64,000 nucleotides of DNA from Nanobdellota archaeon (GCA_018816245.1 JAHIVW010000003.1:389150-453149), one strand, 5' to 3'; positions 43,596-63,985 are shown, counted from the stretch's first letter. Numbers and translations: made by a program. The notes: a model not told the origin generated them from the sequence alone.

Positions 43596-43616
43596 TATAT
43601 AACAGTGTTATATATA
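43596..43616. promoter_or_regulatory. Palindromic TATA-containing motif TATATAACAGTGTTATATATA, 32-52 nt upstream of rtcB
   Basis: Seen in the DNA. The core TATAACAGTGTTATA is identical to the one at 60727..60741. An imperfect hairpin follows at 43625..43659. Confidence 0.5.
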
Positions 43617-43666: not shown

Positions 43667-44272
43667 TCACTGAGCGCGGAAATCAATGTCCGGTCCTGTC
43701 TCGACTTCCACATCAGTCATCTTCCCAACGAGGATCGATCCCTTCCCCAACGCCTTGATGGTTCCGGTCTCTATGTTCGCCAAGACGTCGACAGCGACGT
43801 GGCATCTTGGACCACTGAGAAAAAGGAACTGGTCAAGATGCCCGCTCTCGACATGGAGCGTTGCCCTGTCTCCTCCTGGGGACACTGCAAGAATCTTGGC
43901 GGTAAGGAGTTTCGCGTCGATGTCAGCAGAGCAAATGATGGTCGCCTGTCCTGCTACTGCTTCGAGCACCCGCAACTTGATAGGGAAACAACCATTTGAA
44001 ATGTGCAGGGAGGACGTTGGCACGTCCACCATGACATCACTACAGTTGTTGACGCAGAGCTGGATCGTTCGTGGTACCCGGATGTTGACTTCCCGCACAT
44101 AACGATCAACGGAGGTTCCGTTGAAGAACAGGAGATCATTTCCGAACACGACGGCTTCGTTTTGAACGTCGAGGACCTCTTGATCGAGGTCGTTGATCCC
44201 CCTCACCACAAGTTCTCTCCCACGGGTGAGAGAAATCTTGTGTGAAAAATTGTATAGCAAAACGGTCTGCAT
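43667..44272 (-). CDS. Hypothetical beta-rich protein (201 aa)
   Basis: The sequence shows alternating hydrophobic/polar short-strand periodicity (VMVDVPTSSLHISNG.., ATLHVESGHL.., HVAVDVLANIETGT..). GGAGAGAGT lies before the ATG. No confident family was assigned. Confidence 0.5.
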   Translation of the reverse strand: MQTVLLYNFSHKISLTRGRELVVRGINDLDQEVLDVQNEAVVFGNDLLFFNGTSVDRYVREVNIRVPRTIQLCVNNCSDVMVDVPTSSLHISNGCFPIKLRVLEAVAGQATIICSADIDAKLLTAKILAVSPGGDRATLHVESGHLDQFLFLSGPRCHVAVDVLANIETGTIKALGKGSILVGKMTDVEVETGPDIDFRAQ

Positions 44273-44364: not shown

Positions 44365-44835
44365 TTACCTTTGAGAACGGACCCGGTCGTGCAGACCTTG
44401 AAGATCGTCTCTCGTCGCCTTCATAACGGGGACGATCTCATCCTCGAATCGTTGCATGCAGGTCGCCGGCCCGATCAGCTTCCCGGCCCGATCGTGAAAC
44501 TCTTCTCCCTCGTTGAGCAACACGAGGGTGAAACGCCGCGCGAGCCGGTGGAAGAGCTCGTCGGGAGTGAGTTCTTCATTCTGCACCAGACTTGCGATAA
44601 CCTCATCAACCGCTCGCTGGAAGAGCTCGACAAAGCGAGCATAGTGACTGAAATCCAGCTCCGCCAGGCTGAATGCCAGACGCATTTGGTGTGCGATGGC
44701 AATCCTCCTGAAGGCATATGCACGCGGAATGTCGAAGGGTTTCCGGAACAGATCAAGGAAATTGCACCAGAACACGCCCAGCACGATTCCGAGATCTTCA
44801 GTTGTTGGAGGATGAGTAGTTGTTGTCTTCATCAT
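44365..44835 (-). CDS. Hypothetical protein (156 aa), predicted helical
   Basis: The start MMKTTTTH at 44835 overlaps the upstream stop by 4 nt (ATGA). No motif was recognised. Confidence 0.5.
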   Translation of the reverse strand: MMKTTTTHPPTTEDLGIVLGVFWCNFLDLFRKPFDIPRAYAFRRIAIAHQMRLAFSLAELDFSHYARFVELFQRAVDEVIASLVQNEELTPDELFHRLARRFTLVLLNEGEEFHDRAGKLIGPATCMQRFEDEIVPVMKATRDDLQGLHDRVRSQR

Positions 44836-45284
44836 CCTGCCCCCGTCAGGAGTCCATGAACATCGTCGAAGAGCTTCGCCCCCTCTTCGATAAGCTCTTT
44901 GAGCTCCTTCAAAGCGGCAGTGGTTCCGATCGAATGGAACTGAAGGCGAATCAATCCTTCTTTTCCACCCAAAATCCACGAAACCGGCGTTTGTTCAAAA
45001 GCCTTGTCGAAGGATACCTGGAGGAATCCTATCCAGTCATGATCAGGGTTTGGAGCATCGGATACGAGCTCCTCCTTGACGATATACTTGAGATAGGGTT
45101 CTGCCACCTGTTCGCCGGTTACCTCCGTCACCCCAGCGAACCGAAGACCGAGGTCAAAGACCTTCACAAGTTCCTTGACAAAGCCTTCGTGTTCATTGTC
45201 GATGAATGCTCCCATGACAAGTCCCCAGGCGGACCGGAGGAGGCCGAAGATGAGCTTCGTTTGGTGCATTGTCAGTTTCTGCAT
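44832..45284 (-). CDS. Hypothetical protein (150 aa), possible paralog of 62203..62640 and of the C-terminal half of 53552..54055
   Basis: AAGGAG lies 6 nt upstream of the ATG. Weak colinear similarity is described in the findings. Confidence 0.55.
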   Translation of the reverse strand: MQKLTMHQTKLIFGLLRSAWGLVMGAFIDNEHEGFVKELVKVFDLGLRFAGVTEVTGEQVAEPYLKYIVKEELVSDAPNPDHDWIGFLQVSFDKAFEQTPVSWILGGKEGLIRLQFHSIGTTAALKELKELIEEGAKLFDDVHGLLTGAG

Positions 45285-45510: not shown

Positions 45511-45560
45511 GTCCACCAGCCGCGCTCCCGCTCCCTCATGCGAATCTTGTTTGTTCCCAC
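45511..45560 (-). promoter_or_regulatory. Conserved leader element, copy A (plus strand: GTCCACCAG..CGCTCCCGCTCCCTCAtgcGAATCTTGTTTGTTCCCAC)
   Basis: It shares the ordered blocks CTCCCTCA, GAATCTT, GTTTG and CCCAC with 62715..62765. The CTCCCTCA block lies 83 nt upstream of the first ATG here and 89 nt upstream in copy B. Confidence 0.45.
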
Positions 45561-46144: not shown

Positions 46145-46163
46145 TAAATAACAATGTTATATA
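46145..46163. promoter_or_regulatory. Palindromic TATA-containing motif TAAATAACAATGTTATATA, 31-49 nt upstream of archease
   Basis: Seen in the DNA. It has the same architecture as the rtcB and DASS sites. A hairpin follows at 46172..46214. Confidence 0.45.
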
Positions 46164-53168: not shown

Positions 53169-53285
53169 GCGTCGGTAGTCTAGCGGTAGGACCCAGATCC
53201 TTGGAAACTCAGAGCGCAGTGCGCAATGACCAAGAAGGGAAAGCCTTCCAAGCCTGTGACCCGGGTTCGATTCCCGGTCGACGCA
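53169..53285 (+). tRNA. tRNA-Gly (anticodon TCC) with a 46-nt intron (53197..53242) between positions 29 and 30 of the anticodon stem
   Basis: Exons splice to GCGTCGG-TA-GTCT-AGCGGTA-GGAC-C-CAG|GC-CTTCCAA-GCCTG-TGAC-CCGGG-TTCGATT-CCCGG-TCGACGC-A. The 71-nt product closely resembles typical archaeal tRNA-Gly(UCC). The stem CAGGC/GCCTG forms only after the intron is removed. Confidence 0.85.
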
Positions 53286-53471: not shown

Positions 53472-53486
53472 TATAACGCTGTTATA
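53472..53486. promoter_or_regulatory. Palindromic motif TATAACGCTGTTATA next to a 12-bp-stem hairpin (53492..53546)
   Basis: Seen in the DNA. It is the fourth copy of the palindrome-plus-hairpin module. Here no gene start lies within 50 nt. Confidence 0.35.
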
Positions 53487-53551
53487 TTAATCCAAACAAA
53501 CGGCACGTCATGTCAGTGAGATGTGACACACGCACCGTTCGTTTGGGCACC

Positions 53552-59355: not shown

Positions 59356-60693
59356 TTATATCCAGTACAGCATCGCGAGTGACGCGAGGACGAACAGGCT
59401 GATGGTTGCAAGAATGGCACCGGCCTTCGCCATGTCTTTCACGCGGATGTAGCCGGATGAATAGGCAATCGCCGACGGCGGGGTGCCAACCGGAACAATG
59501 AAGTCAAGTGACACGCCGATGGCAGCGAGCATAACGACAGTCGTCACGTCCAGACCGGTCGCGTGGGCAAGCGGGATCATGAGCGGGATCATCACCGCTG
59601 CTGCGGCTGTGTTGCTGGCAACAACTGTCAAGAGGATGGCAAAGAATCCAATCCCGACAAAGGCGAGGAAGAGCGGCTGGTTCGCGATGACGAGTTCCAG
59701 GAAGGAGGCAATGAATGCATCGAGTCCTGATGCCTGGATGGCTAATCCGAGTGAGAGGCCACCGCCAATCAGGATCAAGGTCGGCCAGTGGATCTTGGTG
59801 AAGTCCTCAGTGTTGAGCAGACCGAACACATACAACAGAATGATCGGAACAAGCGACACCGTGCTGCTGGCCATGCCATGCACGCGCGTGGTCAGCCACA
59901 ATGCAACCGTGACCGCGAAGATGAGGAGCACTTGTTTCTGTGGTTTGCTGAGCCCGCGCTTGAAGCGGATGGTTTTGAGTGTTTTGATTTCAGACCGGAA
60001 TATTCGCGTCACCACCACCCAGGCAACCGGAATAAACACAATCACAAACGGGAGACCGTACCACATCCAGTCAAGGAAGTCAAACGCAATCCCTGCTTCG
60101 TTCAGGAATTTCGCAGCAATGACATTCGGGGTGCTGCCGATCAAGGTCCCGATGCCGCCGATGGTTGCGGCAAACGCAATACCAAGTACCAACGCCTTGC
60201 CGTAATTAGATTTCAACGGCTTGATCTTGTTTTTCGTTAACACAACCAACCCGATTGGTAACAGGATTGCGGTTGCTGCAGTGTTGCTCATCCACATGGA
60301 AAGGAACGCGGCGATCACCATCATAGCGAACAGGAAGGTGTTCGGAGCGTGCCCGATCTTATCAAGGAAGGTGTACGCAATGTATTCGTCGAGTTTGTGC
60401 TTTTGGAGCGCTCGTGCGAGGACGAAACCGCCGAGCAACAGGACAATGACCGGATCGAAGAACGGGGTGAAGGTTTCCTCGGGCGTCATGCCTGCAATCG
60501 TGATCAAGAGGAACGCGATGACAATGGCTGTTGCATGGAGCGGCAGGGCCTCGGTGAACCAGAGGAACATGGCAACGATCATGATTGCCAGGACGAGTTG
60601 CGCCTGCGGTTGGAGGGGAAGCGGCGCGAGCGCAATGATGATCCCGACGATCGCGGAGAGGAGAATGAAGAGGTGCTGGCGGGTCATTTGCAA
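59356..60693 (-). CDS. DASS/SLC13-family anion:sodium symporter
   Basis: A 445-aa polytopic protein. Duplicated SNTA(A/T)A hairpin motifs are present (MSNTAATAILLPI and ASNTAAAAVMIPL). Confidence 0.85.
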   Translation of the reverse strand: MQMTRQHLFILLSAIVGIIIALAPLPLQPQAQLVLAIMIVAMFLWFTEALPLHATAIVIAFLLITIAGMTPEETFTPFFDPVIVLLLGGFVLARALQKHKLDEYIAYTFLDKIGHAPNTFLFAMMVIAAFLSMWMSNTAATAILLPIGLVVLTKNKIKPLKSNYGKALVLGIAFAATIGGIGTLIGSTPNVIAAKFLNEAGIAFDFLDWMWYGLPFVIVFIPVAWVVVTRIFRSEIKTLKTIRFKRGLSKPQKQVLLIFAVTVALWLTTRVHGMASSTVSLVPIILLYVFGLLNTEDFTKIHWPTLILIGGGLSLGLAIQASGLDAFIASFLELVIANQPLFLAFVGIGFFAILLTVVASNTAAAAVMIPLMIPLAHATGLDVTTVVMLAAIGVSLDFIVPVGTPPSAIAYSSGYIRVKDMAKAGAILATISLFVLASLAMLYWI

Positions 60694-60720
60694 TACATTT
60701 GGTTCGGGGGGAGCATAAAG

Positions 60721-60747
60721 GTCATGTATAACAGTGTTATATATGAC
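60721..60747. promoter_or_regulatory. 27-bp near-perfect palindrome GTCATGTATAACAGTGTTATATATGAC, 28-54 nt upstream of the DASS transporter
   Basis: Seen in the DNA. The core is identical to the rtcB site. A long hairpin follows at 60752..60792 (ACGAACGG...CCGTTCGT). Confidence 0.5.
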
Positions 60748-60809
60748 AAAGACGAACGGCAGGAGTATGTTTGTCGGGTTCCTACCGTTCGTGGGTTCAG
60801 GGGAGATGC

Positions 60810-61079
60810 TTATACCTCGAGTGCAGTCCAGCCGTCGCGGGGTCGGGGAACTCCGCCGACAACGGAACCGCTACACTTGAAGATATGTGATCGCAGGCCG
60901 CTTCCGAGGCATGCTTCGCAGATCTTCTTCCCAGCGACCTTTTTCCCATTACAGATCGGACACTTTTCTCCTTCTTTGATATGGTGTCCGACCACCACGT
61001 CCTTCTTCACGGAAATCCCTCCCGTGCCAAAACCTGCATCTCCTAAAAATGTTCCCGCCGATGTGGAGATGCAAAACAT
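60810..61079 (-). CDS. Hypothetical small zinc-finger protein
   Basis: CPICNGKK....CEACLGSG resembles the DnaJ-type CxxCxGxG pair. The start is uncertain. Confidence 0.4.
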   Translation of the reverse strand: MFCISTSAGTFLGDAGFGTGGISVKKDVVVGHHIKEGEKCPICNGKKVAGKKICEACLGSGLRSHIFKCSGSVVGGVPRPRDGWTALEV

Positions 61080-61099
61080 CGGGACGGTTTACGATAATA

Positions 61100-61483
61100 C
61101 TAGCACCTTTTCGGACGTCGAGCTCCCGTGCACATAGAAAGGGTTCGAGTACCAGCGCACATAGAACTCTCGCCCTCCGGCGGCAGTTTTACACCACCGC
61201 CGATGCTAGGGAAGTGTGCCGTAACACGGCCCATCGGAACCGGTTCCCGCTCGGGCTCGATGATCAGCAGTTCCTCGAAGGCATGGAGAACCTCCGGAAA
61301 CAGGATAGGAGATACGCCACCACACTCCTCCAAGAGAAGCTTGAGAATGAGACGCGCGACGTTCTCGAGTCCTCTTGCTCCAGCTTCTCTGAAGATAGTG
61401 TCAGTGACTTCTTCCACCTTTTCGGGTGGTGTATCGTTGTCCGCCAAGACATATACGAGGGCGTGAATCTGTTCTCGTTGCAT
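61100..61483 (-). CDS. Hypothetical protein (127 aa)
   Basis: GGGGAGGGG lies about 10 nt upstream of the ATG at 61483; the ORF track gives 61540. No motif was recognised. Confidence 0.45.
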   Translation of the reverse strand: MQREQIHALVYVLADNDTPPEKVEEVTDTIFREAGARGLENVARLILKLLLEECGGVSPILFPEVLHAFEELLIIEPEREPVPMGRVTAHFPSIGGGVKLPPEGESSMCAGTRTLSMCTGARRPKRC

Positions 61484-61610
61484 ACGACTTTCCCCTCCCC
61501 AGTTTGTGAACCTTGAGGCAGTGGGGAGTTTCTGCCACAACTATACCGAAAAAACCTGGCGGCCCTCCCAGAAAGAGCCGCCAGGTTCAAACTAACGAAC
61601 ACCTTGTCTG

Positions 61611-61808
61611 TCAGCGTTCTCCAAGATCCCTGCTTGGTTGAGCAACTCGGAGTTCCTCAAGAAATCTTTTCACCGCCTCGCGGCGCCTCGGAAGGGCGCT
61701 CTGCCGAAGCAGCACCAATCGCATGGCCCACGGATCGGAGTTGAATTCTCTAACCGGATCCCCGAAGTTCTCGAGAAGTCTGTTCTCGGGCCCCTGGTGC
61801 ATTTTCAC
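61611..61808 (-). CDS. Hypothetical small protein (65 aa)
   Basis: It overlaps the upstream membrane-protein gene by 4 nt. Confidence 0.4.
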   Translation of the reverse strand: MKMHQGPENRLLENFGDPVREFNSDPWAMRLVLLRQSALPRRREAVKRFLEELRVAQPSRDLGER

Positions 61809-62203
61809 GTCATGTTCTCCTTTCTCAGGGGGTCTGTCTTGTGACCAGATCCGATTGTCCAGCCATGGCGAATTAGTTGCAGGACAGGGATCCCTGCAAC
61901 GATGATCATGAAGAGCAGCACCAGAAACTGACCTCCCGTCGTTTCTAGGATCTTCGAAGCTTGTGCCAGGAATGCGAAGGCCCCGAAGATCAAGCTGCTT
62001 CCCAAGAGTCTCTGCTGCTTCAGGTAGGTGAGCGCACCCACGAGCAGCAGAACTACAAACCCGAGTGCAGGTCCGATTCTCATCATCACCTGCGACGGCG
62101 ATCCATCACCATAATCCCCAAAAGGAAAGGTGAAGAGGTAGATGCCGAAGTAGATCACTGTACAGGCAGCGATCAAGATCTGGAGCGTCTTCTGATCTCG
62201 CAT
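61805..62203 (-). CDS. Hypothetical 4-TM membrane protein (132 aa)
   Basis: Four hydrophobic helices are predicted. Its start overlaps the upstream stop by 1 nt (TGATG). Confidence 0.55.
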   Translation of the reverse strand: MRDQKTLQILIAACTVIYFGIYLFTFPFGDYGDGSPSQVMMRIGPALGFVVLLLVGALTYLKQQRLLGSSLIFGAFAFLAQASKILETTGGQFLVLLFMIIVAGIPVLQLIRHGWTIGSGHKTDPLRKENMT

Positions 62204-62640
62204 CAGAATGTGTCCCTGAGAATGGAGGGAAGAACCATGATCTTGGTTCTCAGGGTGTGTGCCGCAAGGGGAATCATCCCGAGAACTTCTTCAGGATCCG
62301 TAGAGAGTTCGGCGAAACGCCGTATCCCCTCCTCACGGCTTACCCCCTCAAGTTCGAGATGTGTGTAGGCATCCGCCAACACCCACTTCATCATCCCGAA
62401 CTGCACACCGCGGTCCCCCTCATTTGGATCGGGGTCAACGAGATCGAACGTCTCGGGACCCAAGAATGTGAACACCGGCGCGAGCGCACCAGCGATCCAG
62501 TTCTTGACATTCGTTTCCTCACCGTGTTCGAAAACGGGGATTTCGTCCCAAACAACGGACAGGAACGCCAGAACTGTGGCGAACAGCTCTGGTCGTGTTG
62601 TCAGGGGTTCCAGGCTTTCCCTGGAGATTTGAACATTCAT
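62203..62640 (-). CDS. Hypothetical protein (146 aa), possible paralog of 44832..45284
   Basis: GGGAGGG lies 3-5 nt upstream of the ATG at 62640; the ORF track gives 62688. It is the first gene of the cluster. Confidence 0.55.
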   Translation of the reverse strand: MNVQISRESLEPLTTRPELFATVLAFLSVVWDEIPVFEHGEETNVKNWIAGALAPVFTFLGPETFDLVDPDPNEGDRGVQFGMMKWVLADAYTHLELEGVSREEGIRRFAELSTDPEEVLGMIPLAAHTLRTKIMVLPSILRDTF

Positions 62641-62714
62641 GTACCCTCCCACATTGCCATTGAGCCAACGGCTCGGAAAAAGAAACACCAGCAGGCAGAC
62701 GAGGAAGGGCGGCT

Positions 62715-62765
62715 GTCTCCAGTCGCTTCTCCCTCAGAATCTTCGGTTTGGTTTTGCCTGCCCAC
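62715..62765 (-). promoter_or_regulatory. Conserved leader element, copy B (plus strand: GTCTCCAGTCGCTTCTCCCTCAGAATCTTCGGTTTGGTTTTGCCTGCCCAC)
   Basis: It has the same ordered blocks as 45511..45560. It lies 89 nt upstream of the first ATG of the cluster. Confidence 0.45.
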
Positions 62766-62987
62766 TGGTGCGTTGAAGAAACCCCAGACGGCTAACACTG
62801 CTTTGGGATCCGGGAAAAAGGGAGCGCAGTATCAGCCGCCCGGGGAGAACAGCTAACGTTCGTCTTGCAGCCCATCAGGAACCATTCCTGGTGATGACCG
62901 CAAGTGCCTTTTCTGCGAAGTGTCCGCTGTCCTTTCTATCTGGTCGCGGGTAGTGCTTACCGGTTTGGCGAATTGGAGGGGAGAAAA

Positions 62988-63272
62988 ATGGAGAACCATT
63001 TTCCTGATGAGCACCACCCGCGGTATTGTCTGGACGTGGACCCCCACTCCGGCAAGGAGTCGGTCAAGAAGGAGAAGAGACCGCTAACGGGGGTCCACGA
63101 TGTCTTTCGTTTGTCTTTCCTCACCCCACAAGAGCGCTCCCGCTGGCATAGGCGAACGCTGTTTTTAAGGGGAGCGTTCTGGTTTGCTGCGATCCGGATG
63201 GAGCGCGAAGCGGTTTTGGAGGTGATAAGAATACTAAGAAAGGAGCCGGAGCTTTATAAAGGTTCTTTTTGA
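62988..63272 (+). CDS. Questionable 94-aa ORF (alternatively part of a long minus-strand leader or ncRNA)
   Basis: GGAGGGG lies 8 nt upstream of the ATG. However, the product is Arg-rich. The DNA contains several perfect or near-perfect 10-bp inverted repeats. Confidence 0.3.
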   Translation: MENHFPDEHHPRYCLDVDPHSGKESVKKEKRPLTGVHDVFRLSFLTPQERSRWHRRTLFLRGAFWFAAIRMEREAVLEVIRILRKEPELYKGSF

Positions 63273-63289
63273 CTACGAGAAAAAGACAA

Positions 63290-63985
63290 CTAGTCAAAGG
63301 TTACTTCCTGGAACTTCCGGGTGTCCGCGAACTCCCGGACATCAGCGATGTGCAGAGTGATCTGGTTCCCGGTCTCGTACACGAGCTCTGCGGCAACCTG
63401 CAACAGAACGTGCCGGATCCGCTCGGAGGTATAGAGGACGTATGACGTCTCCTGCAGGATCTTCCTGAGCTCAGCCCGATCCAGGTTGTGCGCGATCTTG
63501 ATCGTAAGCTTCTTGTCCCCGTCGTCAAAGTCAAAGGAGTTCGTTTCCGCGACATAGGACCAGCCAGCACCCGCCATCATATGCTTGATCGAGGAGACGT
63601 TGATCTCCTTGGTCCCTGTCGGGAGAGGCGCAACAGTTTCCTCATACACCGTGATCCCGGTCGCAGTCGGGAAGTGAATATGCAGGCGATTCTTGCCGAT
63701 CTTCGCTTTCCGGAAGGCGACCAGCCCGATGTCCATGAGCTTTTTCACCTTGTCGTCGAACGTGGAACCAGACAACTTGAGCTGCTTGTAGATCTGGGAT
63801 GAGAAGATCCCTTTCCCGGTGGTAATGACCTGAAAAATATCCTGCTGCACGTCATCGAGGCCGGCCACACCGGTTTGCGGCGCGGGTGCTTCGTCTTGCT
63901 GTTCTTCAATGCGCTGCAAAATGCCTTTCTCTTTCATCAGGTTCCTTATTTCAGCATCAGTTACTGATCCTTTTGGCACTTTCAC
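63290..63985 (-). CDS. Winged-helix domain protein with an uncharacterised C-terminal domain (231 aa; the N-terminus may extend past the window edge)
   Basis: QQDIFQVITTGKGIFSSQIYKQLKLSGSTFDDKVKKLMDIGLVAFRK looks MarR/wHTH-like. The C-terminal roughly 110 aa (SIKHMMAGAGWSYVAE...DDGDKKLTIKIAH) are unassigned. Confidence 0.55.
   Translation of the reverse strand: MKVPKGSVTDAEIRNLMKEKGILQRIEEQQDEAPAPQTGVAGLDDVQQDIFQVITTGKGIFSSQIYKQLKLSGSTFDDKVKKLMDIGLVAFRKAKIGKNRLHIHFPTATGITVYEETVAPLPTGTKEINVSSIKHMMAGAGWSYVAETNSFDFDDGDKKLTIKIAHNLDRAELRKILQETSYVLYTSERIRHVLLQVAAELVYETGNQITLHIADVREFADTRKFQEVTFD

Follow-up and report, generated by a model that had tools for sequence, protein, structure and literature searches.

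An orphan gene set with a strongly folded leader in a hypervariable slot behind a conserved HerA-type ATPase operon of an archaeal genome

Positions 60,694 to 63,985 of a 64,000-nucleotide stretch of DNA from a Nanobdellota archaeon (GCA_018816245.1, JAHIVW010000003.1:389150-453149; the whole stretch is called the window in the following) carry five small open reading frames (ORFs) on the minus strand, designated p145, tm132, p65, p127, and zf66, which are preceded by a long leader. This cluster is a real yet single-lineage set of orphan ORFs (ORFans) in a hypervariable slot, and it is interpreted here, with moderate confidence, as a lineage-specific accessory cassette with a structured leader messenger RNA (mRNA), located in a variable slot behind a conserved operon for a coiled-coil protein and a HerA-type ATPase. 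The window equals positions 389150-453149 of contig C4 in an assembly of 886 kb on six contigs, which is 88% complete and whose closest protein relatives by database name are members of Candidatus Aenigmarchaeota/Aenigmatarchaeota (DPANN). An archaeal host is indicated by a 117-nt transfer RNA (tRNA) at 53169-53285 identified with Rfam, because its length is far above that of a standard tRNA and it must therefore bear an intron. The same population is present in five groundwater metagenomes and is clonal, with only two single-nucleotide polymorphisms (SNPs).

The first line of evidence is the folding of the sense RNA. The leader had been described in a first-pass annotation of the window as long, structured, about 590 nt in length, and poor in ORFs, and this is borne out for positions 62641-63289. 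Its minus-strand RNA (62644-63289) reaches a folding energy of -261 kcal/mol, compared to -213 +/- 5 kcal/mol in dinucleotide shuffles of the same sequence (z=-9.2), and the plus strand a z value of -2.4. In a calibration run with ribosomal RNA (rRNA), the leader scored z=-8.0, the pieces of the organism's own 23S and 16S rRNA -1.9 to -5.9, and its own RNase P RNA -2.2. Uninterrupted helices with a length of 8 bp or more occur seven times in the predicted fold, the longest of them outside the range of the shuffled controls, in which the longest helix had a mean of 10.2 bp and a maximum of 15 bp (40 shuffles). The 20-bp and 16-bp helices listed in Table 1 are available to the sense RNA only, because each of them needs four G.U pairs. 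The leader shows no period-3 signal (z=0.6), contains only short reading frames with near-zero coding scores, and gives no Pfam match in any frame, and a Pfam search of ten alternative-frame ORFs gave nothing usable; a search of positions 60650-63400 against Rfam 15 likewise returned no match at E<=1. An identity as RNase P RNA was discarded, since the latter maps to C4:14293-14593.

The excess of structure does not end at the first start codon. Dinucleotide-shuffle z values of zf66, p127, tm132, and p145 range from -3.0 to -4.7, as compared to values between -1.6 and +0.6 for the genes of the ATPase and its partner, a transporter, a hydrogenase, rtcB, and archease. Permutation of synonymous codons yielded z values of -4.6 for p145, -3.3 for tm132, and -2.9 for p127; four of the five conserved control genes gave values from -0.1 to -0.9, and a nudix gene gave -2.1. 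The three larger ORFs are thus more strongly folded than their own synonymous permutations, and synonymous sites therefore contribute to the pairing. When the entire genome was scanned with regression normalisation, three structured islands extending over multiple windows were detected, namely a segment of the 23S rRNA, a region on contig 6, and the present locus, which surpasses the other two in length and in strand asymmetry. Other outliers of the scan were recorded at C6:41401-42300 and, as single windows, at C4:86100, C4:460500, and C6:96600, with the one at C4:460500 coinciding with a palindromic box (see below) just after the aIF5B gene. The extreme sense-specific structure of leader and coding sequence, as seen in one genome and by thermodynamic statistics, deserves follow-up.

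Two coding tests, a training-free period-3 test and a dicodon model which was trained on the organism's own genome and scored against shadow ORFs as well as true gene fragments, give a mixed picture which on balance favours coding for three of the five ORFs. The period-3 z values amount to 8.2 for p145, 8.6 for tm132, and 3.8 for p127, combined with a coding-type bias in G1, T2, and GC3, followed by a weak value for zf66 (2.2) and a non-significant one for p65 (1.5). The dicodon scores of the five ORFs exceed those of 93-99.8% of the shadow ORFs (99.3% in the case of p145). Strong sites resembling Shine-Dalgarno (SD) sequences, with energies of -11 to -13 kcal/mol, precede p127 and zf66. Going by these sequence features, p145, tm132, and p127 are probably real genes, zf66 is plausibly one, and the coding status of p65 is uncertain.

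The five products are true ORFans within the searched collections, in agreement with the earlier statement that none of them belongs to a recognisable family: Pfam, NCBIfam, PADLOC, and PHROGs gave nothing usable, and the sole sub-threshold match was caused by two exact CxxCxGxG motifs of zf66 (CPICNGKK...CEACLGSG), which would form one DnaJ-type zinc centre and reach 15.9 bits with the profile of the DnaJ-type zinc finger (PF00684), under the gathering threshold of 32.7 bits. Matches to known anti-phage defence systems in PADLOC stayed at chance level, with E values of 0.0005-0.05 over short stretches. A word-seeded search for p145 and tm132 in 5.8 billion proteins returned only the queries themselves, and an exhaustive HMMER search with p145 in 1.84 billion representatives found no homolog; its one extra match (P0008) was rejected as an artefact of 19 identical tandem repeats contributing 25.8 bits each. 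Six-frame searches failed to detect p145 and tm132 in 40 relatives and p127 in 300 genomes of the phylum, scans of IMG/VR with p145 and tm132 and a DNA search of phage records remained empty, and phmmer comparisons of all five proteins with every ORF of 20 syntenic loci gave nothing at E<0.1; a further syntenic locus, that of the nearest relative (L049), likewise contained no match. All five products are singletons in 90% clusters. As none of the relatives possesses the cluster, not even the nearest one, it is accessory. Positional analogues in relatives, such as 4-TM proteins of about 130 amino acids and one CxxCxGxG protein, show no homology to the present products beyond the CxxCxGxG motif itself. 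With regard to individual properties, tm132 exhibits three to four hydrophobic helices with basic loops, and a single-sequence AlphaFold model of p145 is unconfident, with a predicted local distance difference test score (pLDDT) of 44.7. The Cys-containing C-terminal tail of p127 arose by a 27-nt tandem duplication (direct repeat D3). At the same place (61118-61166), a 22-nt direct repeat at 27-nt spacing doubles the sequence Ser-Met-Cys-x-Gly-x-Arg, a sign of recent growth. An alternative start of zf66 at 61079 (60810-61079, 89 amino acids) lacks an SD-like site. One of the two SNPs between the metagenomes (A>T at 61076, run X3) falls into the N-terminal extension of this longer version and would be non-coding if the start of the 66-residue version is the true one.

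The five minus-strand ORFs with their 1-nt and 4-nt overlaps are all present as first described, except that the initial protein comprises 145 residues rather than 146, the latter number including the stop codon. The terminal hairpin was equally confirmed, with its 13-nt arms at 60752-60764 and 60780-60792 being 92% complementary. The proposal of a single coupled unit of five genes was not confirmed, as a 14-bp hairpin followed by a T6 run stands between p65 and p127; because of this element between the third and fourth ORF, the cluster probably forms two transcription units rather than one coupled string. Under the favoured interpretation, two sense-strand transcripts are most likely, whose boundaries we infer as follows. 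The first one would start at the TATA-like palindrome just past the stop codon of the ATPase gene, carry a hairpin-rich non-coding RNA of about 590-650 nt, then encode the coupled proteins p145, tm132, and perhaps p65, and end at the hairpin-T6 site. The second one would encode p127 and the zinc-ribbon protein zf66 and end at the terminal hairpin. The proteins would be new or fast-evolving and probably constitute a small membrane-associated module. Selection appears to act on the RNA as such, as suggested by the G.U-dependent, sense-only helices of the leader and by the arrangement of synonymous sites for pairing in the three larger ORFs, and its structure may either stabilise the transcript or gate translation. 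Rather than a separate machine, the locus would accordingly produce an mRNA which is long-lived, controlled by its structure, and equipped with a leader acting in cis. Note that the GC content of the segment resembles that of its surroundings, that no further copies of it occur in the organism's own genome, the palindromic box aside, and that a replication origin at this site was dismissed, as the cumulative GC skew shows no extremum there. The coordinates of all features are compiled in Table 1.

Table 1. Features of the orphan cluster and its surroundings. Positions refer to the window; window-equivalent positions extend the same count beyond its end. aa, amino acids.
Feature	Position	Strand	Remarks
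Coiled-coil gene, 196 aa	65299-65889 (window-equivalent)		Precedes the ATPase gene; 4-nt overlap with the ATPase start, translationally coupled
HerA/FtsK-superfamily ATPase, C-terminal 236 codons	63290-64000	-	Gene extends to window-equivalent 65302
Palindrome CTTTATAAAG, TATA-box-like	63254-63263	-	Purine-rich stretch before it; candidate promoter of the leader/orphan transcript; 8 copies genome-wide
AAGACAAACGAAAGACA, copy of AACG[AC]AAGACA	63101-63117	-	Motif characteristic of the coiled-coil/ATPase operon's promoter zone
Leader, non-coding structured sense RNA	62641-63289	-	Series of 60-110-nt hairpin domains
Hairpin, 20-bp uninterrupted helix with four G.U pairs	62782-62845	-	Forms on minus-strand RNA only
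Hairpin domain, 16-bp helix with 4 G.U pairs	62685-62771	-	T5 run at its end, ~40 nt ahead of the p145 start codon
p145, 145 aa	62203-62640	-	Acidic (pI 4.5), predicted soluble and all-helical; ATG at 62640; SD-like GGGAGGG 3 nt upstream of the ATG
tm132, 132 aa	61805-62203	-	Basic membrane protein; TGATG (1-nt) overlap couples translation to p145
p65, 65 aa	61611-61808	-	Basic (pI 10.6); GTGA (4-nt) overlap with the tm132 stop; called by NCBI and JGI
Terminator-like element, 14-bp GC-rich hairpin and T6	61547-61598	-	Inverted repeat I7; likely splits the cluster into two transcription units
p127, 127 aa	61100-61483	-	Acidic ORFan; strong SD-like GGGGAGGGG site; SD energy -11.2
zf66, 66 aa	60810-61010	-	Basic; GTG at 61010; SD energy -12.8; NCBI calls the 66-aa version
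Terminal hairpin, 13-nt arms	60752-60792	-	Inverted repeats I10, I21; 3' arm holds an inverted AAGACGAACG motif
Palindromic box TATAACAGTGTTATA	60724-60744		Repeat D14; promoter zone of the DASS transporter gene (59356-60693), not of the cluster

The gene upstream of the leader requires a correction of its annotation. What had been taken for a 231-residue protein with a winged helix-turn-helix (wHTH) domain, and thus for the regulator of the cluster, is an artefact of the window edge: the frame runs off the end of the window and belongs to an ORF of 670 amino acids on the contig, in which a motor domain is followed by the wHTH at about residues 481-545 and an alpha/beta C-terminal domain. Walker A (GSSGYGKTN) and Walker B (LEEAHH) motifs are present, and the protein scores 46.8 bits with the Pfam DUF87/HerA family (PF01935; cut-off 23.2, E=5e-12), which places it in this superfamily. 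An AF2 model based on 61 homologs (pLDDT 84.6) finds its best Foldseek matches in Sulfolobus HerA (4d2i, E=6.6e-15), VirB4 (4ag5, TMt 0.71), and TrwB. The wHTH itself stays below the curated cut-offs, with 19.6 versus 28 bits for F-93_WHD, 17.5 versus 27 for HTH_20, and 21 versus 90 for Lrs14, and a stand-alone wHTH regulator of the MarR, Lrs14, or F-93 type was rejected in view of its position behind a HerA-type motor in a 670-residue protein. A HerA-NurA repair system was also discarded, as there is no adjacent NurA and the NCBIfam HerA models yield 31-35 bits against cut-offs of 800, and so was DNA import of the Ced/Ted type, with 54.7 bits against a cut-off of 600 for CedD and no family match for tm132. 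The coiled-coil partner protein encoded ahead of the ATPase matches no family, and the other upstream neighbour codes for an alpha/beta hydrolase. Most genera of the family possess the pair of coiled-coil protein and ATPase, with sequence identities of about 50% (52 of the 61 related genomes), and a large protein collection contains 624 ATPase homologs with 50-71% identity. In the nearest relative (L049), where the ATPase is 71% identical, the upstream genes for aIF5B, SerRS, and the alpha/beta hydrolase are kept as well. Because of this conservation across the family and the maintained upstream synteny, the pair should be regarded as a vertically inherited core module and not as a regulator of the orphan cluster.

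A sequence motif connects this core module with the leader. The consensus ACG[AC]AAGAC occurs in 17 copies in the genome, three of which lie within 6.5 kb at this locus (0.12 expected), and all three extend to AACG[AC]AAGACA. Two of them, at window-equivalent positions 65901 and 66020 (C4:455050 and 455169), precede the coiled-coil gene by 11 and 130 nt, respectively; the third (63101-63110) lies in the leader, 181 nt past the ATPase stop codon. Since the motif of the operon promoter thus recurs inside the leader, the 5' part of the latter may belong functionally to the flank of the ATPase module. Over 22 loci, the core CG[ACT]AAGAC reaches a density of 1.65 per kb ahead of the operon, 0.41 per kb in the first kb behind it, and 0.058 per kb elsewhere, and AACG[AC]AAGACA may be considered a candidate binding site of the ATPase's own wHTH. 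A related copy of the form AAGAC[AG]AACG is located at 62857, and another one, in inverted orientation, at 60749 within the terminal hairpin.

Downstream of the ATPase gene, the relatives conserve nothing. Species of the same genus share the next housekeeping genes, but not the 1.2-1.5 kb in between, and the respective slots contain other small membrane, secreted, or zinc-finger ORFs. These slots are enriched in strongly folded windows: within the first 2.4 kb past the ATPase, 18% of the sense and 13% of the antisense windows of the relatives fold at z<=-3, with the 5th percentile of windows within the present stretch (-2.45) serving as background; the sense bias of folding is clear in the present genome. 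Several individual observations were made in these slots. In the nearest relative, a 300-nt window between the ATPase and the palindromic box (L049 12601-12900) folds at z=-6.5 in sense and -0.2 in antisense orientation within a gene-free gap of about 900 nt, and has no sequence similarity to the leader described here. In another relative (L037, G051:C10), an ORF of 179 amino acids located 10-550 nt past the ATPase ortholog contains a motif which resembles sigma-70 region 2 by eye (GDLINEGVLGLMKAMKKFDP...YA); small membrane proteins and a protein with CxxCxGxG motifs are encoded in the same slot, and a sigma-70 factor would be unusual for an archaeon. Eight loci among L025-L042 code for a conserved protein of about 100 amino acids with a zinc ribbon and a helix-turn-helix domain (CPYC...WRGYRYN...LRLCKxCGRKFT) at 250-3900 nt past the ATPase, which adjoins the gene for arginyl-tRNA synthetase in either orientation and resembles the N-terminal parts of IS1/IS1595-type transposases.

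Several points weigh against reading the segment as an expressed cassette with a selected RNA structure. The dicodon scores of the five ORFs fall into the lowest 2-28% of those of true gene fragments, with p145 at the 5th percentile; together with scores above those of shadow ORFs, such a pattern would fit young or foreign genes. In addition to its insignificant periodicity, p65 has a codon score of -0.006 and hence no coding signal of its own, and its SD-like energy amounts to -7.1 kcal/mol. The genome as a whole makes weak use of SD sequences, and SD-like runs of G are twice as common in this segment as in control genes. No RNA sequencing runs containing the locus were found. The folding excess in the slots of relatives is nearly strand-symmetric, which would be compatible with an origin at the DNA level or by mutation, and long perfect helices are commoner in hairpin elements than in globular functional RNAs.

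Three alternative explanations were considered. That the segment represents a remnant or passenger of a mobile element, for example a small plasmid or virus with a possible single-stranded stage, which has landed in the slot behind the ATPase operon, appears unlikely, if by no means far-fetched. All products are short ORFans, and small ORFans, a zinc finger, a small membrane protein, and genome-scale folding are typical of such elements; the folding excess runs through the coding parts as in single-stranded replicons, and the downstream slot differs even between species of the same genus and contains other small ORFs, even the one similar to sigma-70. Inovirus-like proviruses, moreover, have been reported in Aenigmarchaeota (PMC6813254). 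However, no gene for an integrase, Rep, a Zot/pI-type ATPase, or a capsid protein is present at the locus, flanking direct repeats or att-like sites are missing, there is no tRNA at the border, IMG/VR and phage records provide no match, and the GC content does not deviate from that of the surroundings, while the adjoining ATPase gene belongs to the vertically inherited core and has kept its synteny with housekeeping genes. An inovirus-like provirus in particular was rejected, as the ATPase is a DUF87 core gene, no small ORF with a single transmembrane domain is present, flanking repeats are absent, and the searches of IMG/VR and phage records remained empty. A further explanation, which must be rated as more doubtful still, ties the whole region to the HerA-type ATPase module, as a loading, boundary, or regulatory element read by the wHTH of the ATPase, with the orphan proteins as fast-changing cargo or accessory subunits. 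The motif of the operon promoter indeed recurs past the ATPase stop codon not only here, but also in six other relatives (at 246-820 nt), the AAGAC[AG]AACG copies at 62857 and 60749 bracket the cluster, and the abundance of structured windows behind the ATPase is shared by relatives. Yet the downstream motif is confined to seven of the 22 loci, no downstream gene is conserved together with the ATPase, the binding of the wHTH to the motif is a prediction from sequence, and in one relative (L027) a conserved housekeeping neighbour follows the ATPase almost directly.

The least probable of the explanations considered takes the ORFs as spurious and the 2.5-kb segment either as one or more large non-coding structured RNAs or as weakly constrained, hairpin-rich DNA generated by template-switch (quasi-palindrome) mutation. 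It could account for z values of -3 to -9 over the whole segment, for the long ORFs on both strands, the dicodon scores that are low for genes, the missing coding signal of p65, the unconfident model of p145, and the near strand symmetry of folding in the relatives. It does not agree with the period-3 z values of about 8 and the coding-type bias of p145 and tm132, which are unlike non-coding RNA and contrast with the value for the leader, nor with the well-formed multi-helix membrane pattern of tm132, the overlaps of start and stop codons, and the two exact CxxCxGxG motifs; besides, a functionless stretch of 2.6 kb is unlikely in a genome of 0.89 Mb. Finally, it would be a long shot to propose a new kind of element, in which a sense RNA that is both protein-coding and folded at least as strongly as rRNA resides in an iteron-marked hypervariable slot behind the HerA-type motor of all Aenigmarchaeota. 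The wHTH of the motor would then read AACG[AC]AAGACA, and the slot would hold rapidly replaced, hairpin-rich cargo, such as a single-stranded replicon which has become endogenous or a structured RNA on which the motor acts. The accessory cassette with a structured leader mRNA is retained as the favoured interpretation.

A relationship to the rtcB-archease cluster of the same window, which the first-pass annotation had based on a possibly paralogous first protein and a shared leader element, is not supported by these features. The alignment of p145 with the 150-residue protein of that cluster is limited to 12 residues (BLASTP, 14.6 bits, E=0.59), and a search of the organism's own genome for a paralogue of p145 at E<=10 retrieved only the query itself. 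The shared element of about 50 nt (45511-45560 versus 62715-62765) does exist, but is marginal: its score of 41, compared to 25.5 +/- 4.5 for random sequences, is attained by 1% of the pieces drawn at random from the window, and the element had been picked by eye, so that as a link between the clusters it is suggestive at best. There is, nevertheless, an unexpected real similarity between the two orphan clusters in the folding excess at synonymous sites, as the orphan ORFs of the rtcB-archease cluster at 43667-44272 (201 amino acids) and 44832-45284 (150 amino acids) show synonymous-shuffle z values of -4.2 and -4.5. The palindromic box TATAACAnTGTTATA has 53 copies in the genome, and its sites in the window (43598-43612, 46147-46161, 53472-53486, and 60727-60741) lie about 25-35 nt upstream of the start codons of rtcB, archease, an ORF whose start is at 53510, and the DASS transporter gene. 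It looks like a general element of promoter zones in this organism and may serve as promoter or operator. In the nearest relative, a copy of the box likewise stands ahead of the gene that follows the ATPase.

As a gene cluster, the locus is an ordinary case of strain-specific orphan genes in a variable slot, and the architecture of regulator, leader, soluble, membrane, and small proteins, once put forward as a candidate for an undescribed system, recurs nowhere else and hence gives no evidence of a system. Its interest lies elsewhere. In thermodynamic terms, the locus is the most structured stretch of the 0.89-Mb genome. If transcript data confirm the structure, the segment would provide either a rare case of a prokaryotic mRNA strongly selected for its overall structure or a leader or non-coding RNA of large size from an archaeon. 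The supposed regulator has turned out to be the tail of a conserved HerA-type motor, and the evidence that the operon of this motor in Aenigmarchaeota is bracketed by a specific motif and a hypervariable, hairpin-rich flank offers a handle on the role of the motor across the phylum. This iteron-marked flank, too, deserves follow-up.

A comparison with known systems shows similarities in several directions. Upstream of the cluster, the ATPase gene represents in full length the conserved aenigmarchaeal module of a coiled-coil protein and a HerA/DUF87-wHTH ATPase, listed in databases as 'DUF87 domain-containing protein', and it is accompanied by the same partner and the same AACG[AC]AAGACA motif ahead of the operon; neither the leader nor any of the five orphan genes belongs to this module, in which nothing downstream is conserved. 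With HerA of the archaeal HerA-NurA end-resection complex (PDB 4d2i, 9x1m), the ATPase shares the core fold and the Walker A and B motifs, but it lacks a NurA, Mre11, or Rad50 neighbour and carries the extra C-terminal wHTH and alpha/beta domain. The two motifs of zf66 are spaced as in one zinc centre of the DnaJ-type CxxCxGxG proteins, which include the small stand-alone anti-TRAP, whereas zf66 stays under every family cut-off and has no J domain. Integron cassette arrays and clusters of attC sites lacking integrases (CALINs) have been reported in archaea and likewise present small same-strand ORFans between strand-specific hairpins in a hypervariable slot, but no integrase is found here and the structure spans the whole segment instead of the cassette ends only. 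A GTTRRRY box of integrons was not seen by eye in the 20-bp helix, the sole hairpin inspected; this inspection included neither the RYYYAAC box nor the remaining hairpins, and a dedicated attC model was not applied. Like the large structured non-coding RNAs of bacteria (OLE, GOLLD, ROOL, and HEARO) and the RNA-virus genomes with genome-scale structure, the segment extends over several hundred nucleotides with a folding excess at least equal to that of rRNA. It differs from the former in having neither an Rfam match nor a second example, and in forming a string of near-perfect hairpins rather than a compact multi-junction fold, and it shares with the latter a structure that reaches into the coding sequence, in this case within the chromosomal DNA of an archaeon.

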